Source: Acidobacteriota bacterium (GTDB taxonomy: Bacteria > Acidobacteriota > Polarisedimenticolia > Gp22-AA2). From it: a stretch of DNA of 64,000 bases. Shown piece by piece: positions 7,925-51,677 of this stretch. The translations under genes and the position numbers were made by a program. Numbering within the stretch: the stretch's first letter is position 1; every line of letters begins with the position of its first letter. The stretch spans positions 1,895 through 65,894 of the forward strand of contig JAGYID010000014.1 of the NCBI GenBank assembly GCA_018606725.1, written 5' to 3'. The notes below the pieces were generated by a model, which was not told the DNA's origin, ran no database searches, and saw only the letters and a list, made by a program, of their open reading frames with translations.

Positions 7925-8008
7925 GAGCCGGACCTGGACTATACTTTTGCACCCTGATGTCGGTTCCGGGGGCTGAAAGTCGCGGGAACCGCCTGGCGGG
8001 GTGAAGCG

Positions 8009-8305
8009 ATGTCGGAAACCCCGGCAATTCGGTCGAGAATCAAGCAGCTCCTCGTGGATGCGCTCCACCTGGAGGGGCTCGCTCCCTCGAAGATCGCCGA
8101 CGACGCGCCGCTGTTCGGCGAAGGTCTCGGGCTCGATTCCGTGGACGCGCTGGAACTCGTGGTCGCTCTCGAGAAGGAGTTCGGGGTCCGGATCCAGAAC
8201 CACGAGGTCGGCAAAGAGGCGTTCGCCTCGGTCAGCGCCCTGGCGGCCTTCATCGACGGGCGCCTCGCCGCCGCGGGGAGCGCGAATGCCGGCAGCTCAT
8301 CCTGA
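8009..8305 (+). CDS. Acyl carrier protein.
   Basis: LGLDSVDALELV phosphopantetheine-attachment motif (Ser in DSV). Its 3' end overlaps the KS start by 20 nt. Confidence 0.8.
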   Translation: MSETPAIRSRIKQLLVDALHLEGLAPSKIADDAPLFGEGLGLDSVDALELVVALEKEFGVRIQNHEVGKEAFASVSALAAFIDGRLAAAGSANAGSSS

Positions 8306-9554
8306 TCGCGTTGCGTCCCGCGCCGTCGCCGTCACCGGTCTCGGCGCGGTCAGCCCCCTCGGCTGGAGCCTGGAGTCGCTGTGGGACGGCCTGCGGTCCG
8401 GCAGGACCGCCGTCGGTCCGTTCGACCGCTTCGACCACTCCGGCCATCGCACCCACGTCGCAGCCCAGGTCGATCTGGCGGCGGAGCCGGGGCGGCCGCG
8501 CGGCAAACCGCGCCGGATGTCGATCGCCGATCGGTTTGCCGTGGCCGCGGCCCGCGAGGCCGTGGCGCGGTCCGCGATCGATCTCGACGGCTGCGGCGGG
8601 CGCGCCGGCGTCTACTTCGGCAGCAGCACCGGCGGGATGCTCGAGACCGAGACCTACCTCGAGACCCTCCTCGCGGCCGCGGCCGGCCGTGGCAAGTCGC
8701 CCGCGGCGAGCCCCCTCGCCTCGCAGCAGCACAACGGTCCCGGCGATGCGGTGGCCCGCGATCTTCGGATCGGCGGGCCGGTGCAGACCATCTCCGCCGC
8801 GTGCGCGTCGGGCGCCATGGCGATCGGCGACGCCATTCTCGCCATTCGTCGCGGGGAGGTGGAGGTCGCGATCGCCGGAGGCTCCGACTCGCTCTGCCGG
8901 CTGACCTACGCGGGGTTCAACGCGCTGCGCGCGGTGGACGAACGTCCCTGCAGGCCGTTCCGCGGGGACCGCGCCGGCCTGTCGCTCGGCGAGGGCGCGG
9001 CCGCGCTCGTTCTGGAACCCCTCGAGCGGGCCCTGGCGCGCGGCGCGCGGCCGCTCGCCATCGCTGCCGGGGAGGCGGCGACGTGCGATGCGCACCACAT
9101 GACATCGCCCCACCCCGAGGGGCTCGGCGCCGCGGAGGCGATCAAGGGGGCGCTCGCGGACGCGCGGCTCGATCCCTCCGAAATCGACTTCGTCAACGCC
9201 CACGGCACCGGCACGCCGCTGAACGACGCGGCGGAGTGCGAGGCCCTGGTCGCCGTGTTCGGCGACCGGGCGCCGGATCTTCCGGTGACCTCCACCAAGT
9301 CGCTCGTCGGCCACCTGCTGGGTTCGGCCGGGGCGCTGGAGGCCGTGGCGACGATCCTCTGCCTCCTCCATGGGGAGGTCCACCCGATGCCGGACGACGG
9401 GGTGTCCGATCCCGGGATCCGGCTGCGGCTGGTCCTGGGGCGCCCGCTGCGGCTCGCGCGGGCGCGGCACGCGCTCTCCACGAGCCTGGCGTTCGGCGGC
9501 GCCAATGCCGCGCTGGTGTTCACGCGCCACGGAGAACAGCACCCTGCGCGCTGA
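8286..9554 (+). CDS. Beta-ketoacyl-ACP synthase (FabF/KAS II-type, type II PKS KS-alpha-like).
   Basis: VAVTGLGAVSPLG N-terminus, active-site Cys in ISAACASGAMAIG, and His motifs in NAHGTGTPLND and KSLVGHLLGSAG. Confidence 0.85.
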   Translation: MPAAHPDRVASRAVAVTGLGAVSPLGWSLESLWDGLRSGRTAVGPFDRFDHSGHRTHVAAQVDLAAEPGRPRGKPRRMSIADRFAVAAAREAVARSAIDLDGCGGRAGVYFGSSTGGMLETETYLETLLAAAAGRGKSPAASPLASQQHNGPGDAVARDLRIGGPVQTISAACASGAMAIGDAILAIRRGEVEVAIAGGSDSLCRLTYAGFNALRAVDERPCRPFRGDRAGLSLGEGAAALVLEPLERALARGARPLAIAAGEAATCDAHHMTSPHPEGLGAAEAIKGALADARLDPSEIDFVNAHGTGTPLNDAAECEALVAVFGDRAPDLPVTSTKSLVGHLLGSAGALEAVATILCLLHGEVHPMPDDGVSDPGIRLRLVLGRPLRLARARHALSTSLAFGGANAALVFTRHGEQHPAR

Positions 9555-9558
9555 GACG

Positions 9559-10770
9559 GTGATTACGGGACTGGGGACGATCGGCCCCTGCGGACACGGG
9601 CGCGAGGCGCTGGCGGCGGCCCTCGCGGTGGGCAAGCCCGTGGTCACCGAGGTGGACCGCGGCGCCGGGATGCACCGCGGGGGTGGAGCGCGGCTCGCCG
9701 CGCTCGTCCGGGAGCGCGATCTCTCCCGCTGGGTTCCTCCCGCCGCCGCCCGGCGGATGAGCTTTCCGTCGAAGCTCGCCGTGGCTGCGGCGCGCATGGC
9801 CCTCGCCGAGGCCGGCATCGGCGCCACCGGCGCCGGCGACCCGCGCGTCGGCGTCTACCTCGCCACCACGTTCGGCTCGGGACTCTCCACGGAGCGGCTG
9901 CTGCGCCAGATCCTGCTCGAAGGGGCCGAAGCGGCGCAGCCTTTCCACTTTTCGGAGTGCGTCGCCAACGCCCCCGCCGCGCAGCTCGCCATCGCCGTCG
10001 GCGCGCACGGCCCCAACGTGACGCTGACCCAGCGCGAAGCGGGGCCGCTCCTCGCCGTCGCCCGCGGGGCCCAGGCGGTGCGCGAAGGGCGCGTCGACCT
10101 CGCGCTCGCCGGCGCCGTCGAGGAGGTCACCCCGCTGCTGCACGCGCTGCTCGACCGCTTCGGCGCGCTGGCCCGGAAGGAGGGCGCGCTCGCGGAATTG
10201 CCGCGACCGTTCGACCGGCGGCGCGACGGCTTCCTCGCGGGAGAGGGAGCGACCCTCATCGTCCTCGAGCGTGAGGACGCGGCGCGTTCGCGCGGCGCGC
10301 GGGCGCTGGCGCGGGTGGCGTGGAGCGGTGCCGCGTTCGACGCGACCGCGACCGTTTCCGACTGGGGCGATGGCCACGCGCCTCTCGCCGCGGCCCTGCG
10401 CGCGGGGCTCGACGAAGCGCCTGGTGGAGCGGCCGGCGTCGGCGCCGTCGTCTCCGGGGCTTCGGGGGCCCGGCGGGGCGACCGCCTCGAGGCGCGCGTC
10501 GTGCGCGCCGCCTGGGGCGAGATCCCGCTGCCTCCCGTCCTGGTGCCCAAAGCGGTCACCGGCGAGTACGGGGGCGGGATCATCGCCCCGGGGTTGCTCG
10601 CTCTCGAGGGAGCGCGTTTCGGTCCCACGCCGGGATTCGCGGAACCCGACCCCGAGGTCGGTATCACGCCCCACTGCGGCGGAGCGCACCCGATCCCGTC
10701 CCGCGTTCTGCTGACCGGGCTGGCGTCCGGCGGGGGGGCCGCGTGGCTCGTCCTGGAACGGGCATCGTGA
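9559..10770 (+). CDS. KS-like partner subunit (chain-length-factor/KS-beta-like beta-ketoacyl synthase family protein).
   Basis: GTG start 4 nt after the KS stop, indicating translational coupling. Thiolase-fold KS homology (VITGLGTIGPCG..., C-terminal VLLTGLASGGGAAWLVLE). Arrangement is typical of APE/type II PKS KS-CLF pairs. Confidence 0.7.
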   Translation: MITGLGTIGPCGHGREALAAALAVGKPVVTEVDRGAGMHRGGGARLAALVRERDLSRWVPPAAARRMSFPSKLAVAAARMALAEAGIGATGAGDPRVGVYLATTFGSGLSTERLLRQILLEGAEAAQPFHFSECVANAPAAQLAIAVGAHGPNVTLTQREAGPLLAVARGAQAVREGRVDLALAGAVEEVTPLLHALLDRFGALARKEGALAELPRPFDRRRDGFLAGEGATLIVLEREDAARSRGARALARVAWSGAAFDATATVSDWGDGHAPLAAALRAGLDEAPGGAAGVGAVVSGASGARRGDRLEARVVRAAWGEIPLPPVLVPKAVTGEYGGGIIAPGLLALEGARFGPTPGFAEPDPEVGITPHCGGAHPIPSRVLLTGLASGGGAAWLVLERAS

Positions 10771-11501
10771 GCGACACCCGGCGGGTGGCGCTGGTCACGG
10801 GCGGGAGCCGCGGCATCGGGCGCGCCATCGTGCGCGCGCTGGCCGGGGAGGGTTGGAGGGTCGCCTTCACCTGGCGCGAGCGCGAGGACGAGGCGCAACG
10901 CCTGGCCGGGGAGCTCGGCGACGCGGCGCGTCCCTTCCGGCTCGATCTCCTGGATCGAGCGCGCCCGGGGAGCCTCGTCGTCGAGGTCGAGGACCAGCTC
11001 GGGCCGATTGCCGGACTGGTGAACAACGCCGGGGTGCGGCGCGACGGGCTGCTCGCGGCGCTCCCCGACGACGCCTGGGACGCGATGCTCGACGCCAATC
11101 TCGGCGGCGCCTTCCGCTGCTGCCGCGCCGCGATCCCGCGCATGTTGCGCCGGCGGGCGGGCTCGATCGTCAACGTGTCCTCGCTGACCGCCGTGCACGG
11201 ACTCGCCGGCCAGACGGCCTATGGCGCGGCCAAGGCGGGCATCCTCGGCCTGACTCGTTCCCTGGCGCGGGAGATCGGCTCGCGCGGGATCCGGGTCAAC
11301 GCCGTGATCCCGGGCTTCGTGCCGACCGACATGGTCGCCGACCTGCCGCCCGAAAAGGTCACGGCGCTGCGCGCCGCCGAGGCGCTGCCGGGCGGCGTGA
11401 CCGCGGCCTCCGTCGCCGACGCGGTGGCGTTCCTGCTGTCGGACCGCGCGGCCTCCATCACCGGCCAGACCCTCGTCGTCGACGCCGGCATGACGGCGTA
11501 G
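10767..11501 (+). CDS. fabG: 3-oxoacyl-ACP reductase (FabG-type SDR ketoreductase).
   Basis: GTGA start overlaps the upstream stop. Rossmann motif VALVTGGSRGIGRAI, NNAG motif, catalytic Ser...YxxxK (TAYGAAKAG). Confidence 0.85.
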   Translation: MSDTRRVALVTGGSRGIGRAIVRALAGEGWRVAFTWREREDEAQRLAGELGDAARPFRLDLLDRARPGSLVVEVEDQLGPIAGLVNNAGVRRDGLLAALPDDAWDAMLDANLGGAFRCCRAAIPRMLRRRAGSIVNVSSLTAVHGLAGQTAYGAAKAGILGLTRSLAREIGSRGIRVNAVIPGFVPTDMVADLPPEKVTALRAAEALPGGVTAASVADAVAFLLSDRAASITGQTLVVDAGMTA

Positions 11502-11512
11502 GAGCGTGGCCG

Positions 11513-12691
11513 ATGTCGCCTGATGCCAGCAGCGCTGCACGCGACGGCCGCCTCGCCGCGCTGCTCCCCGCGGAGCTGATCCCGCTCTTCGACGAGCGGT
11601 TCGTCGGGTCGTGCACCCTGTTCGAGGAATACGTGCACCGGCTCGCGTTGCGGGTCGTCCGCAGCACCGGGATCGACGCCGCGGCGAGGCAGCCTGGCAC
11701 TCGCGGCGAGATCGCGGTGCGTGCCGGCCTGGACGCGGCCCGCGCAGAGGTCACGGTGGGCTGGCTCCTGGCCACGCTGGCGCTGACCGGTCGCGCGGCA
11801 CGCGCCGGCGACGGGCGCTTCCACATCCCGTCGGCGCTGCCGGATCTCGAACCCGAGGAGGTGGCCCGCGAGCAGGAACGCCACGATCCCTCCGCCCTGG
11901 CGTCCTACAGGATGGCGGACCTCGCGGCTGCGGCGTATCCGTCCGTCCTCCGCGGGACCGCGAGCGGCGAGGCGGCCCTGTTCGCGCCGGAACGGATCGG
12001 CGCGTGGTTCGAGTACTTCTCCAACGACAACGTCATCTATGCGATCAGCAACCGCATCGGAGCGATCGCGGCCGAGCGCGCGCTGCACGGCGACGGGGGG
12101 GCGGTCCTCGAGCTCGGGGGCGGACTGGGGAGCGGGACGGCGGCGGTGCTGGAGCGTCTCGCGGACGCGGGGCGGCTCCCCGCAGTCCGGTCTTACCGTC
12201 TCACGGAGATCGCGCCGTCATTCCTGCGCCGGGCCCAGCGGAGGCTCGCGGGGCGGTTCCCCGGCGTGCCGCTTTCCTTCGGACGTCTCGACATGGACCG
12301 GCCGTTCGGCGAGGCGGAGGTCGAGGCAGGTACGTTCGCGCTCGTGTACGGCGTCAACACCCTGCACGTCGCCCGCGACCTCGAGTTCACCCTCGCCGAG
12401 GTCCGGCGCGCCCTCGCACCGGGGGGGGCCCTCGTCCTGTCCGAGTGCGTCCGGCCGTTCCCCGACCGGCCGGTCTACATCGAGTTCCTGTTCAACCTGC
12501 TCGAGGCGTTCCGCGCCCCGCGGCTCGTCGAGCCGTGGCGCCCCAACGGCGGCTTCCTCACTCCCGAACAGTGGACCGCGGCCCTCGAAGCCTGCGGCTT
12601 CCGCGCGGTGACCGTCTATCCCGACATCGCGCGGATCCGCGAGGTCTGCCCCGCGTTCGTCGTGGCCGCGATCACGGCCACAGCCGCCTGA
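11513..12691 (+). CDS. Class I SAM-dependent methyltransferase.
   Basis: GGAG RBS 8 nt upstream. SAM-binding motif I VLELGGGLGSGT and post-I acidic residue. The 3' end overlaps the convergent acyltransferase gene. Confidence 0.7.
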   Translation: MSPDASSAARDGRLAALLPAELIPLFDERFVGSCTLFEEYVHRLALRVVRSTGIDAAARQPGTRGEIAVRAGLDAARAEVTVGWLLATLALTGRAARAGDGRFHIPSALPDLEPEEVAREQERHDPSALASYRMADLAAAAYPSVLRGTASGEAALFAPERIGAWFEYFSNDNVIYAISNRIGAIAAERALHGDGGAVLELGGGLGSGTAAVLERLADAGRLPAVRSYRLTEIAPSFLRRAQRRLAGRFPGVPLSFGRLDMDRPFGEAEVEAGTFALVYGVNTLHVARDLEFTLAEVRRALAPGGALVLSECVRPFPDRPVYIEFLFNLLEAFRAPRLVEPWRPNGGFLTPEQWTAALEACGFRAVTVYPDIARIREVCPAFVVAAITATAA

Positions 12692-13643
12692 AGCAGAACC
12701 ACTGGTGCGGCGCGCGGCGGATGGCCCACTCGATCTCGGCCGCCACCCGCCGCATGGTGGCCGTCAGATCCGCCGCCCGATCGTCGGTTCGCGGGGCGCG
12801 GATCGGCGGGCGGAAGACCACCCGGTAGCGCCGTCGTCCCTCGCGGAAGACGAAGACGGGCAGGAGCGGCGCATCGGCGGTCCGGGCGAGGGCGGCCGGG
12901 CCCGGCGGAAGCGGGAACGGCCTCCCGAACAGCGACGCGTCGATCGATTTCCCGCCCGCCCGCGGACGGTCCCCCTGCACGGCGACGATGTCTCCGCGGC
13001 GAAGCGCGTCGAGCAGCTCCATGCCCTGCAGCGGGTCGTCGTTCTGAAAGTGCATCGTGTACCGGGCCTGCGTGAACCCGGCCACCACGCTCCGGAGAAA
13101 CGCCTGCGCCTGCGCGTCGGCCTCGGGCTCGCGGACAAGATGAACGCGGCGAAGCTCCATCTGTGCCGGCACCATGGAGCCGACCTCGAAGTTCCCCAGG
13201 TGCGCCGTGACCAGCATGAAACCCCGGTCCAGCCGCGCCACCTCGTTCCAGTGCTCGATCGCCTCGGGGTCTATCTGGAACGACCGGTCCGTGATCAACC
13301 GTTCGTAGCGCTCGTTCAGGCACCATCCGAACGACCACATCGTCCTGCAGATGCGGCGCTGGCGCTCCCACCAGCCGCAGGGCCCGAGGACCGCCTCGAG
13401 GTTCGACGCGATGGCGGCGCGGATCTTTCGCAGGCAGACGAAGAAGAATGCCGTGAAGACGGCGGAGAGAATCCACAGGAACGGCGACGGAACCGCGCGA
13501 AGGATGAAGCGATGCAGGCGGTACCAGAAGACGCCGGTGATGTGGAACGGGCCGAGGATCCTCCAAGACCAGCCGCGTTCCGGTGCGTGGGGCGGTGTCG
13601 CCTCGGCAGGCGCAGCCACGGGGGCAGTTCGGGACTCGGCCAC
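12672..13643 (-). CDS. LpxL/HtrB-like lysophospholipid (lauroyl/myristoyl) acyltransferase.
   Basis: N-terminal membrane anchor, an LPLAT-type HxxxxD-like block (VTAHLGNFE), and family-typical length (323 aa). Such acyltransferases are standard in aryl polyene clusters. Confidence 0.7.
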   Translation of the reverse strand: MAESRTAPVAAPAEATPPHAPERGWSWRILGPFHITGVFWYRLHRFILRAVPSPFLWILSAVFTAFFFVCLRKIRAAIASNLEAVLGPCGWWERQRRICRTMWSFGWCLNERYERLITDRSFQIDPEAIEHWNEVARLDRGFMLVTAHLGNFEVGSMVPAQMELRRVHLVREPEADAQAQAFLRSVVAGFTQARYTMHFQNDDPLQGMELLDALRRGDIVAVQGDRPRAGGKSIDASLFGRPFPLPPGPAALARTADAPLLPVFVFREGRRRYRVVFRPPIRAPRTDDRAADLTATMRRVAAEIEWAIRRAPHQWFCFRRLWP

Positions 13644-13652
13644 GGGCGGATT

Positions 13653-14678
13653 CTACAGCGACACGCCTTCGAGCTCGACCAGCAGATCCGCCCGGCAGAG
13701 GTCGGCCTTCAGGTAGATGGCCGAGGTCGACGGATCGAGCCGCCGTGCGAGAGCGTCCCGGATCGCGGGGAAGTGCTCCGGAGAGCGGACGTAGGTCTTG
13801 AGCAGGCCGAAGCGGACGACGTCGTGGCGCCGCCGCCCGGAGCGCCCGACCGCCCCCTCGAGCAGGGCATCGACGTTGGTCAGCGACTCCTCGAGCTGGC
13901 CGAGCGGGTCGCCGCGGTGCACCGTCTCGTGACCGACGACGCTCCCCGTGCCGGACAGGAAGAGCGCCCGCCCCCAGCTCGCCGGCGCGAAGGTGCCGCG
14001 GGCGAAGGAGGGGCTCTTCGGACCGTACTCCGGCGGGTAGCGGTGCGCGCTGACCTGCCGCGGGTTCTCGACGTGGGTCCCCGGCTCGCGGCCGGCGGCG
14101 AAACAGACGATGAGCGCCTCGCCGACGGTGCCGACCGCCGAGGCCGCGGAGAAGTGCTGCTCGGCAGTCTCGCCGAAGCGCTCCTCGAAGCCGCGGGCGC
14201 GTCCGACGTTGAAGCGCTTGTAGCGCTCGACGCCGCGCTGGGTCTCGTTGATCTGCGGTACGTAGTTCCAGACGCGCTGCAGGCCGGGGTAGCCGCGCTC
14301 GTCGAGGAGGGCGAGCAGCTCGCGGTAGGTCTCGAACGCGTCCGCCTCGATGTCGTCGCCGACGCGACGGCTGCGACAGCCAAACAGCACGCGGCCGTCC
14401 TCGGCCCACGCCAGTTCGCCCCGGCGGAAACGCGCGGCGGGCGCCGGAGTGCCCCAGATCTCGAGCTGGGGCGCGCCGTCCAGGACGGAGTTCGGGACAT
14501 CGACGAAAGGATGATCGGCGTCGCGCAGCCCCGACGCCGGCCCGCCGTAGCGCACCGCCAACAGGACGCGGCCGCGCTCTTTGTCGAGTTCGGCCGCCAA
14601 CCGCCCGGCCGGACCGACCCGCAGAGTCAGCCCGGTCTCCCGTGCGCCGGGCGAAGTCTGGAGCGCAGGTGTCATCAT
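13653..14678 (-). CDS. FkbO/Hyg5/XanB2-family chorismatase-like protein with a C-terminal YjgF/RidA-like domain; a predicted hydroxybenzoate-forming enzyme.
   Basis: 341 aa, close to FkbO/XanB2 length. The C-terminal half (FSAASAVGT...LFLSGTGSV...) resembles the YjgF-like domain of chorismatases. Its position between the acyltransferase and the PHP gene inside a KS/CLF/ACP cluster parallels the xanthomonadin locus. Confidence 0.5.
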   Translation of the reverse strand: MMTPALQTSPGARETGLTLRVGPAGRLAAELDKERGRVLLAVRYGGPASGLRDADHPFVDVPNSVLDGAPQLEIWGTPAPAARFRRGELAWAEDGRVLFGCRSRRVGDDIEADAFETYRELLALLDERGYPGLQRVWNYVPQINETQRGVERYKRFNVGRARGFEERFGETAEQHFSAASAVGTVGEALIVCFAAGREPGTHVENPRQVSAHRYPPEYGPKSPSFARGTFAPASWGRALFLSGTGSVVGHETVHRGDPLGQLEESLTNVDALLEGAVGRSGRRRHDVVRFGLLKTYVRSPEHFPAIRDALARRLDPSTSAIYLKADLCRADLLVELEGVSL

Positions 14679-14687
14679 TATTGATTC

Positions 14688-15665
14688 CTAGCCTTCGGGC
14701 TCTTCCTGCGGGGCGGAAGGGGCGCAGGGTTCCGCGACGGTCCGGAGATCGGCGCTCCTCATGCTCCGCGAAACCACCTTGCTCAGCCCGCTCGTCCCGA
14801 AGTAGCTCAGAAGGCTCATGAAGAGCGGGACCCCCGCCAGGGAGATCGGCACGAAGGCTGCCGCCGCCAGATAGTTGACCGGCGTCATGCGGCGGCGTTC
14901 CGCGGGAATGCCGAGATGCCGGTAGTACCGGCCGACCATCCCGTACACCTGCCCCACCAGCCCGAGAAGGCCGATCTCGCGCCCCGCCACGAGACAGTTC
15001 CCCTCCGCCACGGAAGCGAGCCAGGCCCGCTTGTCATCGCCGGGCGCGAGCGTGACGTAGGCCCCGATCGGCCGCAGACCGTGCGCGTCGCTGCCGCCGA
15101 TTCCGAAACGGGTCAGCCCCATCCGCCGGCCATACTCAAGGATGCCGGCGGCAGCCCGGTTCTGATCGGGGGGCAGCGTGCCGTTCCCCATCTCCACGTG
15201 GGTGAACAGCTCCAGGATATCCTCCACGAACCGCATCGGACTCTTCTGCATGCGATAGCTCTGGAAAGGATGATTGAGGACGTGGACCAGATTCCGGGAG
15301 CGCAGGTACGGGACGAGCTCGTAGATGTTCCCCTTCACCCGATTCAGATCGTCGTGGGTCGCCTCGTCGACCCCGAGGACGTTCACGTGGGCCCACTGCC
15401 CGGTTTCCGGGAAGAAGGTCTCGACCTCCTCGCCGATGATCACGGTCGGCTCGAGATCGGGGCGCCTCGACAGGAGCTCGAGGGCTCCGTCGATGGTGTC
15501 GTGGTCGGTGATGGCGACATAGTCGCAGCCGACCTCCCGGCAGCGCTCGTAGACGCGCAGGGGGTCGTTGTAGGAGTCGCGCGCGCGAAGGAGCTTCAGA
15601 TGCCGGAAATTCGAGAAGGCGGTGTGGACGTGCAGGTCAACCTTCCGCAGAGGAGATCCGGTCAC
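14688..15665 (-). CDS. PHP-domain metal-dependent phosphoesterase.
   Basis: N-terminal DLHVHTAFS and ITDHD PHP motifs, with later GGSDAHG. Confidence 0.6.
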   Translation of the reverse strand: MTGSPLRKVDLHVHTAFSNFRHLKLLRARDSYNDPLRVYERCREVGCDYVAITDHDTIDGALELLSRRPDLEPTVIIGEEVETFFPETGQWAHVNVLGVDEATHDDLNRVKGNIYELVPYLRSRNLVHVLNHPFQSYRMQKSPMRFVEDILELFTHVEMGNGTLPPDQNRAAAGILEYGRRMGLTRFGIGGSDAHGLRPIGAYVTLAPGDDKRAWLASVAEGNCLVAGREIGLLGLVGQVYGMVGRYYRHLGIPAERRRMTPVNYLAAAAFVPISLAGVPLFMSLLSYFGTSGLSKVVSRSMRSADLRTVAEPCAPSAPQEEPEG

Positions 15666-15736
15666 GCGGCGTTCCCTCCAGCGCCGCGGCGGGTCGCGGC
15701 AAACGGCGGCATTCTATCATCCGGCGGGCGGTTACA

Positions 15737-16480
15737 ATGATTGCGACGATGAAGACTGCCGACAGCCCGGGCGCGGCCGCGCTGAACCGGCGCTTCTACG
15801 ATGCGCTCTGGGCCGACACTTACCTGATTCGGCCCGAGCGCTTCAACACCTGGCCGCTGGTCCGCGATCTGATGATCGCCGGTTCGCACCGCCTGGAGAT
15901 CGGGCCGGGCCTGCGGCCGCGCCTGCCGATCCCCGGCACCTGCTTCGTCGACATCAGCCGCGCCGCCCTCTCCCGGCTGGTCCGGCATGGCGGGTTGGCC
16001 ACGCAAGCCACCGCCGAGGCCTTGCCGTTTCCGGATGCGGCCTTCGATCTCGTCATGGCGATGGACATCATCGAGCACGCCGTCGACGACGAGCCGGTGT
16101 TCCGCGAGCTGGCGCGAGTGCTCCGGCCCGGCGGGGCGCTGGTGCTGTCTTCGCCGCTGCACCCGGACAAATGGACCAGCTTCGACGACGTGGTCGGGCA
16201 TCTTCGCCGCTACCAGCCTCGAGAGCTGCTGGCGAGGCTGGCAGGCCACGGGCTGACGCTGGAACGCAGCGCCGTCTACGGCATGCAGCTGCGCAGCCGG
16301 ATGCTGATCCGAATGGGAGCGTGGTGGCTCACGCGACGGAGAGAGCAGGCGATGCGCTGGTACAACCGCGTGCTCATGCCGATCGGACTGTTGTTCGAGA
16401 AACGCCTGCGGCTGGAGCCGGGAATGATCGACGCCACGCGCGTGGACGAGGTGCTGCTGGTCTGCCGGAAGAACTTTTAA
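15737..16480 (+). CDS. Class I SAM-dependent methyltransferase (Methyltransf_11-like).
   Basis: Motif I region LEIGPGLRP and Methyltransf_11-like core DLVMAMDIIEHAVDDEPVFRELARVLRPGGALVLS. Confidence 0.7.
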   Translation: MIATMKTADSPGAAALNRRFYDALWADTYLIRPERFNTWPLVRDLMIAGSHRLEIGPGLRPRLPIPGTCFVDISRAALSRLVRHGGLATQATAEALPFPDAAFDLVMAMDIIEHAVDDEPVFRELARVLRPGGALVLSSPLHPDKWTSFDDVVGHLRRYQPRELLARLAGHGLTLERSAVYGMQLRSRMLIRMGAWWLTRRREQAMRWYNRVLMPIGLLFEKRLRLEPGMIDATRVDEVLLVCRKNF

Positions 16481-17253
16481 CCACCCGCCTCCGACGACCG
16501 TTCCTCGAGCCTCGATCGCTCCGTCGGGTCCGCGAGGTCGAACAGGCCGTCGGGGATTTGCCGCTCCTCCATCTCGAGGAGCGTGACCTCGGTCCGGAGT
16601 CCGGAGCGGAGACGGTCGGTGATGACCAGCCGGCGGGCCACGGGCCGGGCCCCTTCCCTCCACTCGAGGAATTCCACGACGGACGAGGTCTTCCCGCTCG
16701 GCAGGAGGTATTCGGCGCGGACGGGCCTTTCCGTCGCGCGTCGCACGAAGTACCTGATCTTGGGATAGGGGGCGCGCTTGCTCCTGGCCGCCAGATCCAG
16801 GACGACGAGAGGCTCCCCGGCCTCCTCCGTCTCCGTGGCTCGCTCGATCCCATAGTCGCGCCCGTAGCGGATCCCGAGGACGTCATCGATCGACGCGCTC
16901 CCGCGCAGCCGTCGCGCCGGGCTCATCTTGATGGGCTTCCGGGCGCCGGGTGCCAGGAACCAGACGACGTCATCGAGCCTGAGAAGGTATTTCCCCGTCT
17001 CGTTCGGCCCCAGGAAGCGCACCAGGCTCTTCGCGTCGCCCGAGCGCCAGACCTCGATGTCCATCGGGCCGGGCCGCTGGTGAAGCGCATCGATCCGGAG
17101 GCGCGCCCGGAAGGACTCCGGGGCGAGGCTCGCGACGTCGCTCTTCCTGAGGATATCCGCGGCGGCTTCGGGCGTAATCACCGCGGCCGGCGCGGGCGCG
17201 GGCATCAGAGCGAGGACCGCGACGATGGCCGCGGACAGCCTCCCGCTAAACAT
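16477..17253 (-). CDS. LolA-like outer-membrane lipoprotein-sorting/carrier protein.
   Basis: Signal peptide MFSGRLSAAIVAVLALMPAPAPAAV. Beta-rich, about 250 aa. Start overlaps the stop of the upstream ABC permease, so it is the operon's last gene. LolA-like proteins are typical of APE export modules. Confidence 0.55.
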   Translation of the reverse strand: MFSGRLSAAIVAVLALMPAPAPAAVITPEAAADILRKSDVASLAPESFRARLRIDALHQRPGPMDIEVWRSGDAKSLVRFLGPNETGKYLLRLDDVVWFLAPGARKPIKMSPARRLRGSASIDDVLGIRYGRDYGIERATETEEAGEPLVVLDLAARSKRAPYPKIRYFVRRATERPVRAEYLLPSGKTSSVVEFLEWREGARPVARRLVITDRLRSGLRTEVTLLEMEERQIPDGLFDLADPTERSRLEERSSEAGG

Positions 17254-18487
17254 GCCGGAGCGCGTCCGCGATCCGGAGCCGGACGGACATCCCCACCGGC
17301 ACGGCGGCCGCAATGCCGAGAATCACCAGCATGAGCGCGACGGTGGCGGCGAAGTCGCCCGGCGCCGTCGCGAGCCGGAGCTCGATGCCACCCGTCGCTC
17401 CGGGCGGGGGTGGCATCTGGATCCCGAGACCGTTGATCGCGGCGACGAGGGCGATCCCGAGGAGGTCTCCGGCCAGCGCCCCAAGGAGCCCGAGCCACAG
17501 GGCCTCGAGCAGGATGATCGCCGCCACCTGTGCGCGGCTCGTCCCGATGGCGAGGAGCGTGCCGATTTCGCGGACGCGCTCCATGACGGACATCATGAGA
17601 GTGTTCGAGGTCGACAGACAGACGAGGACGAAGATGACCGATCCGAGAAACCAGAAGATACCGAGGTAGAGGGACTCCACCTGTCCGTAGAACGGCGCGC
17701 GCGTCTTCCAGTCCACGATCGCGAGGGACGGCTCCCGCCCGCGGAGGCGGCGGTCGAGCTCGGCCTGGACCTCCGGAGTCCGCGCTGTGTCGTCGAGCCC
17801 GATGACGAGCGACGTGATGTTCTGCGTGCCGAGGAGCCGTTGCGCGCTCGCGAGGTGCATCTTGACGATACGGGAATCGAGGTCCTGGAGCCCGGTCGTG
17901 ATCAGGCCGGCCACCCGGAGATCGAGCGCGTTCAACGTCCCGTCGGTCGTGATGCCGAGCAGCGTGAGCAGGTCCCCCGCCTCCGCGCCGAGGCTTCGCG
18001 CCAGGACCGTCCCGAGGAGGATCGCGTCCTCCCCGTCCGACGGTGGCGCGTCGGGCAGGCCCGTCCCCCCTCGGAGCTTCACCTCGAACCGCATGCGACG
18101 CTCGCGCCCGGGCTCGTTGGCCACGGCGATCACCGCGGCGGACCGCTCCCCCTTCGAGAGCATGCCGGTGAACTGCACGATGGCGCCGGCGGCCAGGACG
18201 TGCGGCATCGCCTCGATCCCGTTCCGCAGCTCCTGCCAATCCTGCATGCCGGGGATCCCCGGACGCTCGGCGGAGGACTCGCCCCCGGCGACGTCGCTTC
18301 GAGGCACGACCTCGAGCTGACCGATTCCGCCGTGGATGATCGCCTCGCGCAGCCCCTCGAAGGAAAACCGGATGAAGCCGGCGGTGAGGAGTGTGCCGAT
18401 CGTCCCCGCGGCGACGATCAGGAGCGAGAGCAGCGTCCGCCGGCGGTTCCGCGCCAGGTTCCGCAGGGCGATCACGGCGAACTTCAT
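17246..18487 (-). CDS. ABC transporter permease, FtsX/MacB/LolCE-like.
   Basis: N-terminal [33 protein letters not shown], a large periplasmic domain, then the C-terminal FtsX 4-TM bundle. ATGA overlap with the upstream ATPase. Confidence 0.75.
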   Translation of the reverse strand: MKFAVIALRNLARNRRRTLLSLLIVAAGTIGTLLTAGFIRFSFEGLREAIIHGGIGQLEVVPRSDVAGGESSAERPGIPGMQDWQELRNGIEAMPHVLAAGAIVQFTGMLSKGERSAAVIAVANEPGRERRMRFEVKLRGGTGLPDAPPSDGEDAILLGTVLARSLGAEAGDLLTLLGITTDGTLNALDLRVAGLITTGLQDLDSRIVKMHLASAQRLLGTQNITSLVIGLDDTARTPEVQAELDRRLRGREPSLAIVDWKTRAPFYGQVESLYLGIFWFLGSVIFVLVCLSTSNTLMMSVMERVREIGTLLAIGTSRAQVAAIILLEALWLGLLGALAGDLLGIALVAAINGLGIQMPPPPGATGGIELRLATAPGDFAATVALMLVILGIAAAVPVGMSVRLRIADALRHV

Positions 18488-19242
18488 CGAACCCCTCCCG
18501 GGCGGCGGGCGCCGGCGCCCTCGTCGGCGATGACGCGCCCGTCGAGGAGACGGATCCGCCGCGGCGATCTCTCGATGACGGCCGGGTCGTGGGTGGCGAT
18601 GAGGAACGTGGTGCCCCGCTCGGTGTTCGTCCGCGCCAGCAGGTCTACGATCTCCGCTCCGGTTGTCGAGTCGAGGTTCGCGGTGGGCTCGTCGGCGAGG
18701 ATGACGCGCGGGTCGTGAACGAGGCCGCGTGCGAGCGCGACGCGCTGCCGCTCCCCGCCCGAGAGCTGGTCGGGCCGCTGGTGCATGCGGCCGGCGAGAC
18801 CGACGGAGGCGAGCGCCTCCTCCGTCCGCCGCCGCCGCTCGGCCCGGCCGAGGCCGTCGATCCTCAACGGGTACTCGACGTTCTCGTAGGCGGTGAGCAC
18901 CGGGATGAGATTGAACGACTGGAACACGAACCCGACCTTGCGCCGGAGGAACAACGTCCTCTCGCCGGACGTCTGCCGGCCGAGGTCGCTCCCCTCGAAG
19001 AGCACGCTCCCGGAGTCCGGCCCGTCGAGGGCGCCGAGCAGGTTGAAGAGCGTCGTCTTGCCGCACCCCGAGGGCCCGGCGACCACCACGAACTCGCCCC
19101 TCGTGACGACCAGGTCGACGCCGCGGAGAGCCTCGATGGTGAAGGCGCCCAGCCGGTATCTCTTGCGAAGCCCGGACGCCTCGAAGATCGGCGGAGCCGA
19201 CTCGGGATCGAGGGGCCGGCGCGGTGCGTGGGGTTCGGACAT
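18484..19242 (-). CDS. ABC transporter ATP-binding protein (LolD/MacB-type).
   Basis: Walker [13 protein letters not shown] signature [14 protein letters not shown], Walker B ILADEPT, H-loop IATHD. Confidence 0.85.
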
Positions 19243-19338
19243 GAACCTGGATTCTATCGAATCCCGGGCGGATTCGAACTTCGGCGGCCGGTTGATCGGG
19301 GCCCTGATAGAATTCCCTGGCCGCAAGGAGAATGCTTG

Positions 19339-20079
19339 ATGGGGTCCTTCAGGACGGAGGTGCGCCGCCGGGGACACCGGGGGTCTGCCGAACGCCGTGG
19401 CGCACCCGATCCCCTCGAGCGGGCGCTCGTGGCCGCGACGGCGCGCTACGTCGGACTGCACCCGCGGTTCCGCTGGTACGCGCGCCTGAAATACCGGTTT
19501 GATCCCTGCTACCGGGCGATTGCGCGGCACATCGGCGAGGACTCGTTCACCGTGGATCTGGGAACCGGCCTCGGGATGCTGCCGGTGCTGCTCGGCGAGC
19601 TCGGCGGGCGACGTCGGGCCCTCGGCGTCGATTGGGATCGGGAGAAGGTGCGCTGCGGGCTCCATGCGTCCCGCGGCCTCCCGGGCGTGGAGATGGTCGA
19701 AGGCGACCTGCATGCCTTCGCCCTGCCCGCCTGCGACGTCATCACCCTGGTTGACGTGCTCCATTACTACGAGGCCCCCAGGCAGGAGGAGATTCTCCAA
19801 CGATGCCGGCTGGCGCTCGGGCCGGGCGGCCGCCTGATCATCCGGGACGGCGACGGCGCCCGCCCGGGCGGCGCGCGCTTCACGCGGATCGTCGAGACGT
19901 GGGCCACCCGAATGGGGTGGAATCGGGGACCGGCGGTGCATTTCCGGCCCATATCGGAGCTGCGCGCCGCGCTCGTCGGGCTCGGCTTTCGCGTCGACGA
20001 GGACGAGGTGGCGAGTCGGTCTCATCCCGGCAACGTGCTTCTCGTGGCCGGGCTGGACACGGTGTCAGGAGATCCCTGA
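19339..20079 (+). CDS. SAM-dependent methyltransferase (small class I methyltransferase).
   Basis: Divergent from the ABC operon across a 96-bp intergenic region. Motif I VDLGTGLGMLP, later LIIRDG. The N-terminal part of the listed ORF is artefactual; start chosen at MGSFRTEV. Confidence 0.6.
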   Translation: MGSFRTEVRRRGHRGSAERRGAPDPLERALVAATARYVGLHPRFRWYARLKYRFDPCYRAIARHIGEDSFTVDLGTGLGMLPVLLGELGGRRRALGVDWDREKVRCGLHASRGLPGVEMVEGDLHAFALPACDVITLVDVLHYYEAPRQEEILQRCRLALGPGGRLIIRDGDGARPGGARFTRIVETWATRMGWNRGPAVHFRPISELRAALVGLGFRVDEDEVASRSHPGNVLLVAGLDTVSGDP

Positions 20080-20196
20080 TTTTCGCCCGGGGAGCGGTCC
20101 GGCACGGCGCCGCCGCCTACAATGAGCCGGTCGGCCTCGGACGCGCTCGTTGGGAGCGCGTGGACGACCGGCTCCGCGCTTGCGCAGGAGGAACGT

Positions 20197-20652
20197 ATGA
20201 AAGCCAAAGAGCTCATGACCCCCGAACCGGACGTCGTCACCTCCAAAGACTCCCTCAGCAAGGCTGCTCAAGTCATGCGTGACCGAAACGTCGGCTCGGT
20301 CCCCGTCGTCGAGAGCCGCGACACCATGAGGCCGCAGGGGATCATCACCGATCGCGACATCGTGGTCCGCCACGCCGCCGACGATCACGATCGAGGCTGC
20401 ATCGTCTCGGCCCACATGACGAAAGGGCCCATCGAGACGGTGGACGAGAACGACGAACTCGAGAAAGTGATGGACACGATGAAGCGCGCGGAAGTGCGGC
20501 GCGTCCTGGTGACCGGCAAAGGCGGGCGCCTGGTCGGGATCATCGCCCAGGCCGACCTGGCGACTTCGGATCAAGTCCCGATGCGCGACATAGCGGAGGT
20601 TGTGCAGACGATCTCCGAGCCGGCCGGGGCGAGGCGCGAACGCTCCGTCTAG
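20197..20652 (+). CDS. CBS-domain pair protein.
   Basis: AGGAGG RBS. Tandem CBS motifs (VGSVPVV..., GIITDRDIVVR, RLVGIIAQADL). Confidence 0.8.
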   Translation: MKAKELMTPEPDVVTSKDSLSKAAQVMRDRNVGSVPVVESRDTMRPQGIITDRDIVVRHAADDHDRGCIVSAHMTKGPIETVDENDELEKVMDTMKRAEVRRVLVTGKGGRLVGIIAQADLATSDQVPMRDIAEVVQTISEPAGARRERSV

Positions 20653-20670
20653 GGAACCAAGGAGACCCCC

Positions 20671-21222
20671 ATGCCCGAAAAGCCGTTCCTGACAGACATC
20701 AAGACCTTGAGACAGCGGGCGCGCCAGCACATCGAGAAGGGGGCCGTGACGCCCGGGTACCAGGCCGACCTGGCGACCGTCGTCCGCATCCTGAACGAGG
20801 CTCTCGCCACCGAGATCGTCTGCGTCCTCCGGTACAGGCGCCATTACTTCATGGCGAGCGGAATCAACGCCCAGAGCGTCGCCCAGGAGTTCCTCGAGCA
20901 CTCCAACGAGGAGCAGGCGCACGCGGATCAGATCGCGCAGCGGATCGTGCAGCTGGGCGGAGAGCCGAACCTGTCTCCGGAGGGCCTCCTGACGCGCAGT
21001 CACGCGGAGTATGTCGAAGGGGACTCCCTCATCGACATGATCAAGGAGGACCTGGTCGCCGAACGGGTCGCCATCGACAGCTATCGCGAGATGATCGCGT
21101 ACCTCGGACATGATGACCCCACCACGGTCAGGATGCTCGAGGGAATCCTCGCCATGGAGGAGACGCACGCGGAGGATCTCGTCAGTCTCCTGGAAAAACT
21201 GGGGACATCGGGCCCCCGCTGA
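20671..21222 (+). CDS. Ferritin-like (bacterioferritin/Dps-superfamily) di-iron protein.
   Basis: GGAGA RBS. Four-helix-bundle ferritin-like sequence with E/H metal ligands (EHSNEEQAHAD, EETHAEDL). Confidence 0.7.
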   Translation: MPEKPFLTDIKTLRQRARQHIEKGAVTPGYQADLATVVRILNEALATEIVCVLRYRRHYFMASGINAQSVAQEFLEHSNEEQAHADQIAQRIVQLGGEPNLSPEGLLTRSHAEYVEGDSLIDMIKEDLVAERVAIDSYREMIAYLGHDDPTTVRMLEGILAMEETHAEDLVSLLEKLGTSGPR

Positions 21223-21232
21223 GGAGTCGGCG

Positions 21233-22121: not shown

Positions 22122-22955
22122 CTACTTTGCGAGAAAGGTCAGCAGCTCGCGGTTGACTTCCTCGGCGTGGGTCCAGTTCAGGCCGTGCGGGCCGCCCTTG
22201 ATCACCGCCAGCCGGCTCCCCTTGACGATCTCCTGCGTGCGCTTCCCGGTGCCGGCCAGGGGAAGAATGCGGTCGTCGTCGCCGTGAACGACCAGCGTCG
22301 GCAGGTCGATGCGATTGAGATCCTCGCGGAAGTCGGTGAGCCACGCCTGGACGCAGTCGAGCGTGCCCCTGGGAGAGGCGCCGGCCGCGATGTTCCAGCT
22401 CAGTCGCACGACCTCGTCGCTGACCTTGGTGCCCTTCAGGCTGTCGACGTTGTAGAACTTCGCCAGGAAGCCGGAGAGGAATGCCGGACGGTCCGCGGCG
22501 ATGGCCTTCTTGATCCCGTCGTAGACGCCGCTCTCCACGCCCGCCGGGTTGTCGGGCGTCTTCAGCAGGAACGGCGTGATCGCGGCCATGAACACCGCCT
22601 TGCTCACGCGCTTGCTGCCGTGGGAGCCGAGATAGCGGGCCACCTCGCCGCCACCCATCGAAAACCCGACCAGCGTCGCGTCGCGCAGGTCGAGCTTGGT
22701 CATCAGCTTGTGCAGGTCATCGGCGAAGGTGTCGTAGTCGTAGCCGGTGGTCGGCCTGCTGGAATTCCCGAACCCCCTGCGATCGTAGGTGACGACCCGG
22801 TAACCGGCGTCCAGCAGCGCCGGCACCTGCTTCTCCCAGGAGGCGCCGCTCAGCGGCCAGCCGTGGATCAGCACGACCGGCTTGCCCCGGCCGTGGTCCT
22901 CAAAATAGAGATCGACGCTACCGGAGTTTTCCTTGTCGACATTGATAAAAGTCAT
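22122..22955 (-). CDS. Cofactor-free (non-haem) haloperoxidase/perhydrolase, alpha/beta-hydrolase fold.
   Basis: GFSMGG nucleophile elbow and overall similarity to non-haem chloroperoxidases (VVLIHGWPLS, VVHGDDDRILP). Confidence 0.8.
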   Translation of the reverse strand: MTFINVDKENSGSVDLYFEDHGRGKPVVLIHGWPLSGASWEKQVPALLDAGYRVVTYDRRGFGNSSRPTTGYDYDTFADDLHKLMTKLDLRDATLVGFSMGGGEVARYLGSHGSKRVSKAVFMAAITPFLLKTPDNPAGVESGVYDGIKKAIAADRPAFLSGFLAKFYNVDSLKGTKVSDEVVRLSWNIAAGASPRGTLDCVQAWLTDFREDLNRIDLPTLVVHGDDDRILPLAGTGKRTQEIVKGSRLAVIKGGPHGLNWTHAEEVNRELLTFLAK

Positions 22956-23153
22956 CGAGAATCTCCTTCCCTTGAATTCGGTCGCCGGAATCCATCCTAG
23001 CAGGCCGGACGCGCGGAGCCCATTCGACCTGCCGACTTTCCTGAGTGCCTATTCGGGTTTTTCCCGATTGGCACCGGTCGCTGGTTCCGCTAGTGTGAGT
23101 GGGCAGGCATGTGTAGAGCATGTCGTAACGGAGATCGTTCCGAAGGAGGAACC

Positions 23154-40167: not shown

Positions 40168-40266
40168 GTCGACCTCCCTCTTTTGGTGGTCCGACCCGTG
40201 TCGAGGCACGCGCCGGCGATTCGAAGCGCGGCAAGTCTATCAGAGGGGTGCTATCCTCGCTGCCCG

Positions 40267-50107: not shown

Positions 50108-50111
50108 CTCC

Positions 50112-51561: not shown

Positions 51562-51677
51562 AAGCGCGGCCCGGCCGGGCCCCTCCTGACGCCCGGCCGC
51601 CCCATGCTAAGATTCGCTCCAATCGAACGGAACCTCGACACGCCGAGAAAAGGAGGCGCGCCGTGCGACACATTCTG

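Follow-up and report, generated by a model that had tools for sequence, protein, structure and literature searches.

A probable xanthomonadin/aryl-polyene-type lipid cluster of an acidobacterium with an apparent dehydratase deletion

Few bacterial biosynthetic gene clusters are as widespread as aryl-polyene (APE) clusters, the products of which guard against oxidative and light damage; to our knowledge, all characterised clusters come from Proteobacteria and Bacteroidetes. In a 64-kb stretch of contig JAGYID010000014.1 of an uncultured acidobacterium from soil, here referred to as the window, a preliminary description had assigned positions 8009-20079 to an APE- or xanthomonadin-like type II polyketide synthase (PKS) lipid cluster with a non-canonical gene set. 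This raises the question of whether the locus follows a design of its own or belongs to a more familiar type of pathway from which parts have gone missing. Our analysis suggests that the apparent oddity is largely the outcome of a recent deletion, together with the modular make-up of an acidobacterial branch of the xanthomonadin/APE family that is large and uncharacterised. We consider it probable that the locus is a trimmed APE lipid cluster of the xanthomonadin/arcuflavin branch which has lost its dehydratase (DH) gene by deletion, the missing activity being supplied in trans or the product being altered or lost.

The synthase core and its family

Genes were called by means of third-position G+C content (GC3) and frame plots, and each was then checked against Pfam and NCBIfam. 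As the G+C content of the window is high (64-76% per 2-kb bin, mainly 65-71%), raw lists of open reading frames (ORFs) are crowded with spurious frames. GC3 frame analysis and hidden Markov model (HMM) scans resolved 13 genes in five transcription blocks which exactly fill positions 8009-20079, in agreement with the parts list and coordinates given earlier for this 12-kb module, while the minus-strand ORF formerly drawn at 18484-20025 had to be divided into two genes, one for an ABC ATPase (minus strand, up to 19242) and one for a methyltransferase (plus strand, from 19339). The tightly coupled first block, on the plus strand, has genes for an acyl carrier protein (ACP), a ketosynthase (KS), a KS-like partner of the chain-length-factor (CLF) type, a short-chain dehydrogenase/reductase (SDR) acting as ketoreductase (KR), and a 392-aa methyltransferase. 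Convergent with it, the second block (minus strand) comprises genes for a PHP-family hydrolase, a chorismatase and an LpxL-like acyltransferase (AT). The remaining blocks encode a 247-aa methyltransferase (plus strand), the ABC ATPase with an FtsX/MacB permease and a LolA-like protein (minus strand), and a 246-aa methyltransferase (plus strand). A promoter scan of the sequence returned no hits, and terminator-like sites were fewer than the mean of shuffled sequences.

The ACP (8009-8305, plus strand; Pfam PP-binding, E 6e-12) is ApeE-like and has kept the serine of the DSV motif; its best NCBIfam match is PRK09184 with 67.7 bits, slightly below the cut-off of 70 bits, and it is 46% identical to Escherichia coli ApeE as compared to 35% for AcpP. 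Its gene overlaps by 20 nt with that of the elongating KS (8286-9554, plus strand), in which both the N- and the C-terminal ketoacyl-synt domains (E 2e-39 and 4e-34) and the Cys/His/His triad are intact. The CLF gene (9559-10770, plus strand, 403 aa) starts with a GTG at 9559 after a gap of 4 nt, or with an alternative ATG at 9505 (421 aa), which would turn the gap into a 50-nt overlap, and it shares the sequence GTGA with the KR gene (10767-11501, plus strand; adh_short_C2, E 1.5e-61). This spacing fits translational coupling from ACP to KR, including the coupling previously proposed for the KS and its partner. In the CLF, Glu stands in place of the active-site Cys (QREAGP motif) and of the second His, and the first His aligns with Gly in the alignment to E. 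coli FabF or with Ser in the pairwise phmmer alignment. The exchange of Cys for Glu occurs in all eight CLFs that were aligned to FabF and is invariant in an alignment of 13 sequences. Pfam detects only the N-terminal KS domain of the protein. The KS fold is otherwise full-length, and the protein is unlike the short ApeC, with an E value of 1e-4 in an HMM comparison. As judged by these residues, the protein is a catalytically dead KS partner of the chain-length-factor type.

Of 300 bootstraps of neighbour-joining (NJ) trees with four reference sequences, 299 placed the KS family as sister to E. coli ApeO, and none placed it with FabF or FabB. One alternative to be weighed here is that the genes for ACP, KS, CLF and KR arose by duplication of those for primary fatty-acid synthesis and lie beside envelope-lipid genes by chance. 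The top-scoring PDB and E. coli matches of KS and KR are indeed FabF and FabG, and the KR shares 42% identity with FabG and 34% with ApeQ. Both proteins, however, score below the cut-offs of the curated equivalog models (KS, 339 of 494 bits on the FabF model TIGR03150; KR, 233 of 298 bits on the FabG model TIGR01830), and the KS is paired with a partner that lacks all three catalytic residues. With the ACP closest to ApeE, the KS clade beside ApeO and never beside FabF, and ApeI/ApeP-type dehydratases, aryl-acid ligases and halogenases encoded in the related loci, we rejected membership in primary fatty-acid synthesis (FabF/FabG/AcpP) and regard a chance duplicate as highly improbable.

The CLF is the most cluster-specific protein of the locus, with more than 1,300 homologs. 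Related loci, designated L with a number, were collected as the neighbourhoods of six CLF homologs, 80 loci of GTDB species representatives and 80 metagenome loci, and were compared by a panel of 21 proteins; the ape cluster of E. coli CFT073 (L089) was compared directly. Genes for ACP, KS, CLF and KR are common to the 80 GTDB loci, nearly all of which stem from metagenome-assembled genomes (MAGs) of Acidobacteriota or Planctomycetota. With few exceptions, the hosts are uncultured members of the Thermoanaerobaculia, Polarisedimenticolia, Vicinamibacteria and Holophagales within the Acidobacteriota, or of the Planctomycetota; judged by its relatives, the window would be placed in the Acidobacteriota near Candidatus Polarisedimenticolia. 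Most of these loci add an AMP-ligase, a NodB-type deacetylase, a family 2 glycosyltransferase (GT2), an MMPL exporter, an ApeI/ApeP-like DH and an LpxL-like AT, and some a halogenase (e.g. L003, L014 and L038; none occurs in the window). The usual gene order is NodB-type deacetylase, AMP-ligase, ACP, KS, CLF, GT2, KR and MMPL, followed in some loci by a homolog of the 392-aa methyltransferase, then by a fused ApeI-like/ApeP-like DH and the LpxL-like AT, to which some loci add an FADH2 halogenase and a chorismatase. The DH of the relatives matches both ApeP and ApeI, and their GT2 matches the glycosyltransferase half of ApeJ. Their gene content also corresponds to the parts lists that have been published for the Azoarcus arc and Xanthomonas pig clusters. 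The placement in the APE/xanthomonadin family proposed in the preliminary description is thus borne out by the grouping of the KS with ApeO and by relatives that are syntenic with the window and carry the full xanthomonadin/arcuflavin set; a grouping of the KS pair with FabF/FabB and a lack of synteny with APE-type clusters, which had been named as grounds against it, were both contradicted by the data.

No paper on clusters of this type emerged from a literature search on aryl polyenes in Acidobacteriota, and flavoaffinin was dismissed as a comparator as it concerns a type I PKS. Three of the relatives, L010, L011 and L012 (DASRJX010000077.1, DASRAN010000073.1 and DATKFL010000238.1), have CLFs 78-81% identical to that of the window and are labelled as Candidatus Cryosericum, a Patescibacteria group and Dongiaceae, whereas the other relatives of this kind are all Acidobacteriota; we suspect mis-binning or mislabelling of these three MAG contigs.

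The missing dehydratase

According to Grammbitter et al., the core set of an APE cluster consists of KS, ACP, CLF, DH, KR and a transporter. The window provides an ApeO-type KS, an ApeE-type ACP, an inactive CLF and a KR; a DH of the ApeI/ApeP type and an MMPL transporter (ApeM) are absent. Across all 64 kb, Pfam searches of the called genes revealed neither a hotdog dehydratase nor an AMP-ligase, a thioesterase or an MMPL protein, and the absence of dehydratase, aryl-ACP ligase, thioesterase and MMPL exporter that had been noted for the cluster therefore holds for the whole window. Similarly, tblastn searches of the window with the DH, ligase, MMPL, GT2, deacetylase and halogenase of relatives yielded nothing (best E 0.04). 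The sole alpha/beta hydrolase of the window (22122-22955) is BioH/PcaD-like, and nothing in our data ties it to the cluster. The deacetylase gene that lies upstream of the ACP gene in relatives is gone from the window as well.

Comparison with close relatives revealed where the DH gene would have been located. By blastn, positions 7967-12679 of the window align to 8428-13142 of L006 and positions 12672-19970 to 13908-21232, and the same breakpoint pattern was obtained against L004, L001 and L174. At this point the relatives have an additional 0.77-0.85 kb, namely the fused ApeI-like/ApeP-like DH gene, which is located between the genes of the 392-aa methyltransferase and the AT; L174, L004, L006 and L001 each carry the DH at precisely this position, and the DH gene directly follows that of the methyltransferase in 49 of 69 informative loci. 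Read directly at the breakpoints, the sequence of the window has a single remaining copy of the 8-bp motif TCACGGCC at 12672-12679 (a scar without strand), and TCACGGCC occurs twice in L006 and L174, located 12 nt upstream of the end of the methyltransferase gene and 20 nt upstream of that of the DH gene. Correspondingly, the final four codons of the methyltransferase ORF of the window stem from the end of the deleted gene, and the junction is in frame. The features of this scar show that two 8-bp repeats recombined and that the DH gene was thereby cleanly excised. The nearest relative, L174, whose CLF falls into the same 90% cluster as that of the window, has retained the DH, and the loss is therefore recent in the lineage of the window.

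As the contig is derived from a metagenome, and as the exact CLF sequence is recorded from only a single 71-kb NCBI contig, the missing gene might reflect an artefact of MAG assembly or binning. We consider this very improbable: the repeat, with 8 bp, is far below the k-mer sizes of assemblers, the in-frame junction leaves the methyltransferase ORF intact, and the identical DH-less junction is found in independent metagenome contigs from other samples and assemblies (L101-L103), with a variant of it, in which the native stop codon of the methyltransferase gene is kept, in L104. In a distance-based, bootstrapped tree of concatenated CLF, KR, 392-aa methyltransferase and AT sequences, the window groups with the DH-bearing L004/L094 (162 of 200 bootstraps), while L101, L102 and L104 form a separate clade next to the DH-bearing L006. 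Since the DH-less loci fall into separate clades, the gene was lost at least twice, and with its pair of 8-bp repeats it is apparently a hotspot for microhomology-mediated deletion. The additional DNA within the clusters of L101 and L102 harbours no relocated dehydratase; it encodes only CBS and BON proteins.

The same CBS-pair and BON genes were noted at differing positions. In L101 (7191-8927) and L102 (6022-7758) they lie inside the cluster, between the genes of the chorismatase and the 247-aa methyltransferase, and in the window they are situated downstream of it (20122-20652 and 23094-23690). This difference indicates that the cluster is being rearranged around these envelope-stress-type genes.

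In the light of the relatives, the non-canonical gene set of the preliminary description does not represent a coherent design of its own: the DH has been deleted, and ligase, GT2, deacetylase, MMPL and halogenase are kept by other members of the family such as L003 and L109. Neither do the PHP hydrolase and the three methyltransferases stand in place of canonical genes, as had been suggested, since all of them coexist with a DH in L006. The further suggestion of a methylated aryl-lipid unlike described APEs is reasonable with regard to methylation, and can be sharpened to a homolog of PKS-type C-methyltransferases (see below), but not with regard to the gene set as an alternative design.

Proposed pathway and fate of the cluster

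With the DH gene removed, the cluster as encoded cannot make a polyene alone. Either a DH (and a ligase) would be encoded elsewhere in the genome, much as the arc pathway of Azoarcus is distributed over two loci (PMC3949708), or the product would be altered or lost. All 13 ORFs are intact and display strong coding GC3. Ratios of nonsynonymous to synonymous substitutions (dN/dS) between the window and its relatives are 0.18-0.47, values which mostly reflect the time before the deletion. The members of the independent DH-less clade L101-L104 show dS values of about 0.2-0.4 and dN/dS ratios of 0.08-0.31 with intact genes for KS, CLF, KR, the 392-aa methyltransferase, AT and chorismatase. Between L101 and L102, dS is 0.17-0.38 and dN/dS is 0.08-0.29 (KS, CLF, KR, 392-aa and 247-aa methyltransferases, AT, chorismatase and LolA-like protein). 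As these two loci share the junction and nevertheless have low dN/dS ratios, selection appears to have continued after the loss of the DH, which favours a DH acting in trans or an altered product.

These data also bear on the notion that the cluster is a decaying remnant which, with DH, ligase, GT2 and deacetylase gone, no longer makes a pigment and is heading towards pseudogenisation. The deletion is recent, with the DH kept in the nearest relative, the deacetylase gene upstream of that for the ACP has been lost as well, and the DH loss is recurrent, as it would be in a trait that is dispensable and has a hotspot for deletions. In addition, most deletions of APE core genes in E. coli abolish the pigment despite the FabZ and FabA of the host (PMC8253772). 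Nevertheless, the integrity and coding signature of all 13 ORFs, the dN/dS ratios against the relatives, even if these ratios are mostly of pre-deletion origin, and particularly the constraint within the L101-L104 clade, which suggests that the DH-less state is maintained, argue against ongoing decay, and we regard it as unlikely.

Alternatively, the version of the cluster with ABC/LolA-like export and without DH and ligase might be a functional pathway towards a different product, a candidate being a C-methylated, beta-hydroxylated or partly unsaturated acyl lipid linked to 3-hydroxybenzoate. Such a scenario would account for the purifying selection that persists in the DH-less clade; moreover, there is no replacement hotdog gene in or near the DH-less clusters, and the conserved 392-aa methyltransferase, PHP hydrolase and LolA/ABC module set this subgroup apart. 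L006, however, combines the same architecture with a DH, and the architecture has thus not evolved around the absence of this enzyme. There is also no precedent for a KS/CLF pair of this kind extending beta-hydroxyacyl chains, and a DH might act in trans, as only 64 kb of the genome are visible. We therefore consider a distinct functional product doubtful. It is a similarly speculative idea that the recurrent DH loss is adaptive, in which case the version with chorismatase, 392-aa methyltransferase, PHP hydrolase and ABC/LolA-like export may make an undescribed outer-membrane aryl lipid, primed with 3-hydroxybenzoate, C-methyl-branched and hydroxylated or partly unsaturated rather than a conjugated polyene. 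In this scenario, a type II KS/CLF pair would cooperate with a PKS-type C-methyltransferase that is free-standing.

Several points weigh against the reading that we favour, that of a trimmed xanthomonadin/arcuflavin-type cluster. All roles are assigned by homology, and no product has been seen. The raw similarity of the KS is slightly higher to FabF than to ApeO, and long-branch attraction may underlie its grouping with ApeO in NJ trees with four references. The likeness to the Xanthomonas and Azoarcus clusters is one of gene content and not of direct sequence comparison. The 64 kb contain no aryl-ACP ligase, chorismatase-bearing relatives other than L109 are likewise without a ligase within 10 kb, and the loading of the starter onto the ACP is left unexplained by the cluster of the window. 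C-methylation may occur at the chain or at the ring. Finally, since most deletions of core genes in E. coli abolish the pigment, easy complementation of the lost DH is unlikely.

For a trimmed cluster of this branch, we propose the following pathway. Synthesis would start with the conversion of chorismate to 3-hydroxybenzoate (3-HBA) by the chorismatase (13653-14678, minus strand), a member of the FkbO/Hyg5 family (TIGR04444, E 2e-67). Its match to Hyg5 in the PDB (5ag3, 1.6e-50) is better than that to FkbO (4bps, 7e-44), and the Gly of the SGTGS motif, the Cys of the DLCRADLLVE motif and the catalytic Glu align with those of Hyg5, the signature residues of the Hyg5 subfamily being as given in PMC7170507. 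The enzyme is accordingly predicted to be a Hyg5-like 3-HBA synthase. 3-HBA would then be loaded onto the ApeE-like ACP, a step presumably carried out by the AMP-ligase in relatives, for which the window has no gene; in L109, whose CLF is 80% identical to that of the window, chorismatase and AMP-ligase occur together. The heterodimer of KS and dead KS would extend the chain by malonyl units, with the SDR reducing every beta-keto group, and in the relatives the fused ApeI/ApeP double-hotdog dehydratase would introduce the conjugated double bonds.

Methyl branches would be added, probably at the stage of the beta-ketoacyl-ACP, by the 392-aa methyltransferase (11513-12691, plus strand), a stand-alone homolog of PKS-type C-methyltransferases (C-MTs) with an N-terminal lid and a class I S-adenosylmethionine (SAM) fold. 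PDB matches to the C-MT of CurJ (9e-16), to DisA, PsoF, the CMeT of LovB and PksCT cover both lid and core, and matches to domains inside PKSs of 5.7-6.8 kaa reach E values of about 1e-40. N282, H285 and E311, together with the SAM-binding motif ELGGG, are invariant across 92 family members; we take the Asn/His and Glu positions to include the catalytic His-Glu dyad of C-MTs. Ten representatives of the family were looked up and one of them carries a name, a generic one. The protein is no ortholog of ApeB, as neither blastp nor the family HMM returned a match to E. coli ApeB. Where such a C-MT stands free within a type II system, the chain may be expected to carry alpha-methyl branches.

The two small methyltransferases may modify a phenol or carboxyl group. 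The 247-aa protein (15737-16480, plus strand; Methyltransf_11, E 4e-15) is a class I SAM-dependent enzyme with weak NCBIfam matches to lipid or phenol O-methyltransferases and UbiE/UbiG and is probably an O-methyltransferase; its gene adjoins that of the PHP hydrolase or the LolA-like protein in L004, L006 and L101-L102. The third SAM-dependent methyltransferase (19339-20079, plus strand, 246 aa) has a partial Methyltransf_2 signature, characteristic of O-methyltransferases, in Pfam, and is located beside the ABC genes in L006 and L102 as well.

The LpxL-like AT (12672-13643, minus strand; Lip_A_acyltrans, E 3e-25), of the lysophospholipid/lipid A family, would take over the chain from the ACP and pass it to a lipid anchor. 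It has an N-terminal transmembrane helix and the HX4E motif (AHLGNFE), and matches the acyltransferase half of ApeJ from E. coli both by blastp (4e-11) and by the family HMM (6e-21). It is the only lipid-anchoring gene of the cluster, whereas GT2 and NodB-type deacetylase are present in relatives only. The adjacent PHP-family metallohydrolase (14688-15665, minus strand) scores 26.3 bits on the Pfam PHP model (cut-off 26.4) and in addition matches PHP_C and a CehA/McbA domain (E 5e-17); it has the HxH, DH and DxH metal ligands and a C-terminal transmembrane helix, and its gene is conserved in L004, L006, L010 and L104. Searches of the PDB by sequence gave no match for either the AT or the PHP protein. 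As APE lipids of Xenorhabdus have a GalNAc-phosphate-glycerol anchor (bioRxiv 10.1101/2020.12.19.423268), a role of this membrane hydrolase as a phosphoesterase that may process a phosphorylated head group is plausible by analogy. Homologs with 49% identity are encoded beside an LpxL-like AT in other clusters with ACP, two KSs, GT2 and AMP-ligase. These belong to a different and apparently uncharacterised type of lipid cluster (L172, 2551-11880; L173, 3865-12797), the genes of which encode the LpxL-like AT, AMP-ligase, PHP protein, GT2, ACP, two full ketosynthases and an ACT-domain protein, with a low-molecular-weight phosphatase between both ketosynthases; one of the two clusters also has a B12 radical SAM enzyme.

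Finally, the lipid would be conveyed to the outer membrane by an ABC transporter and a periplasmic carrier, replacing the MMPL protein of most relatives. The ATPase (18484-19242, minus strand; ABC_tran, E 1e-32) is of the LolD/MacB type and matches LolD (TIGR02211, E 4e-62) below the cut-off; the stop codon of its gene overlaps the start codon (ATGA) of that of an FtsX/MacB-type, LolC/E-like permease (17246-18487, minus strand; Pfam FtsX and MacB_PCD; lolCE TIGR02212, E 1e-25, below the cut-off). The carrier of the LolA superfamily (16477-17253, minus strand, with the ORF extending up to 17313; Pfam LolA_like, E 2e-22) probably starts with the ATG at 17253 and in this form has a Sec signal peptide without a lipobox; it matches PDB entry 3buu of the same superfamily at 9.5e-14. 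This module occurs in the window, L006, L101, L102, L036 and L015, MMPL occurs in about 36 loci, and no locus has both. As the two never co-occur within the family, the ABC/LolA-like module seems to substitute functionally for MMPL, which supports an interchangeability of the two modes of export.

The genes flanking the cluster are unrelated to it, with functions in housekeeping and signalling, and encode, among others, PAS-GGDEF-EAL, CBS, ferritin-like, BON and OmpA proteins, L,D-transpeptidases, a Ser/Thr kinase and radical SAM proteins. The PAS-GGDEF-EAL gene (1947-4052) is located upstream in both the window and the syntenic L006. A gene at 5576-7177 (plus strand) encodes a 533-aa protein without a Pfam domain and with a weak hint of a NosD-like beta-helix; in L006 it is found, about 70% identical at the nucleotide level and inverted, near the cluster (2118-3695, minus strand). 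Further downstream in the window there are three B12-binding radical SAM proteins (24828-26306, 59265-61226 and 61419-63128) and one of the DUF3641 type (49055-50170), near which a CMD-family protein, a pirin, a homolog of the selenium-binding protein SBP56 (51621-53045) and a di-haem peroxidase/SCO1 fusion (53232-54905) are encoded. A frame of 678 codons at 40183-42216 (plus strand), encoding a multi-pass membrane protein without a Pfam match, explains the AT skew of -0.29 in the 40-42 kb bin; its long ORF from about 42.2 kb overlaps that of a 1007-aa OmpR-type/AAA_16 regulator on the opposite strand (42151-45174). In an 858-aa protein (45379-47955, plus strand), two CHRD domains accompany a beta-propeller of the glucose/sorbosone dehydrogenase type.

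Comparison with known systems

Together with its hundreds of metagenomic relatives, the window points to a xanthomonadin-like branch that is common in uncultured Acidobacteriota and Planctomycetota. This branch is modular, as MMPL and ABC/LolA-like export are swapped and chorismatase and ligase come and go. The window differs from characterised clusters in the stand-alone C-MT and in the ABC/LolA-like export; the recurrent, apparently tolerated loss of the DH is a further noteworthy point. A free-standing PKS-type C-MT in a type II system would predict methyl-branched, carotenoid-like polyenes, and we know of no report of aryl polyenes of this kind. For genome mining, the locus illustrates that an odd gene set may be a fresh deletion, and that close relatives should be compared before novelty is claimed.

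Among characterised systems, the closest in gene content are the xanthomonadin and arcuflavin clusters (pig/xan of Xanthomonas, arcA-X of Azoarcus sp. BH72, and that of Lysobacter enzymogenes). Pathways of the xanthomonadin type lead to yellow, brominated aryl polyenes that are bound to the membrane. In Xanthomonas, XanB2 makes 3-HBA, which XanA2 ligates to the ACP XanC (PMC6859482). The arc genes, as listed in PMC3949708, encode a KS, a protein with an N-terminal KS domain, two dehydratases, a KR, a glycosyltransferase, two acyltransferases, a XanB2 chorismatase, a halogenase, a methyltransferase, a polysaccharide deacetylase, an exporter, LolA, an AMP-ligase and an ACP. Common to the window and these systems are a chorismatase, predicted here to supply a hydroxybenzoate starter, the ACP, a KS with an N-terminal-KS-domain partner, a FabG-type KR, an AT, a methyltransferase and a carrier of the LolA type. 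The relatives of the window also have an AMP-ligase, a dehydratase, a glycosyltransferase, a polysaccharide deacetylase, an exporter and a halogenase. In contrast to xanthomonadin and arcuflavin clusters, the window thus has no dehydratase (which has been deleted), ligase, glycosyltransferase, deacetylase, halogenase or MMPL-type exporter, its chorismatase looks to be of the Hyg5 type as judged by sequence, and its host belongs to the Acidobacteriota and not to the Proteobacteria. Its C-MT, PHP hydrolase and ABC transporter are not named in the portions of PMC6859482 and PMC3949708 that were searched.

With the APE clusters of E. coli and Xenorhabdus (apeA-R), the window has in common an ApeE-like ACP, a KS that is sister to ApeO and an AT resembling the acyltransferase half of ApeJ, and it would follow the same logic of an ACP-bound polyene, a lipid anchor and delivery to the outer membrane. 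It differs in that its CLF is full-length (403 aa) as opposed to the 240-aa ApeC, and in that an initiation KS (ApeR), a second ACP, the thioesterase ApeK, the ligase ApeH, the MMPL protein ApeM, ApeN and ApeG have no counterparts. Its LolA-like protein and its three methyltransferases have no detectable similarity to ApeL and ApeB, and its starter would be provided by a chorismatase encoded within the cluster and not by UbiC.

Two parts of the locus resemble systems of other kinds. In the 392-aa protein, the lid and the catalytic core align with those of C-MT domains of PKSs (CurJ, DisA, the CMeT of LovB, PksCT and PsoF), but the protein is free-standing, alongside a type II KS, CLF and ACP, rather than a domain of a type I PKS, be it modular or iterative. 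Likewise, the export module is built like the LolCDE-LolA and MacB exporters, with an FtsX-fold permease bearing a MacB periplasmic core, a LolD-like ATPase and a LolA-fold carrier in one operon. It differs from LolCDE in its scores, which are well below the cut-offs of the LolC, LolD and LolE equivalog models, in its single permease gene, and in its association with a lipid-pigment cluster, so that its cargo is presumably a glycolipid or acyl-lipid and not a lipoprotein.

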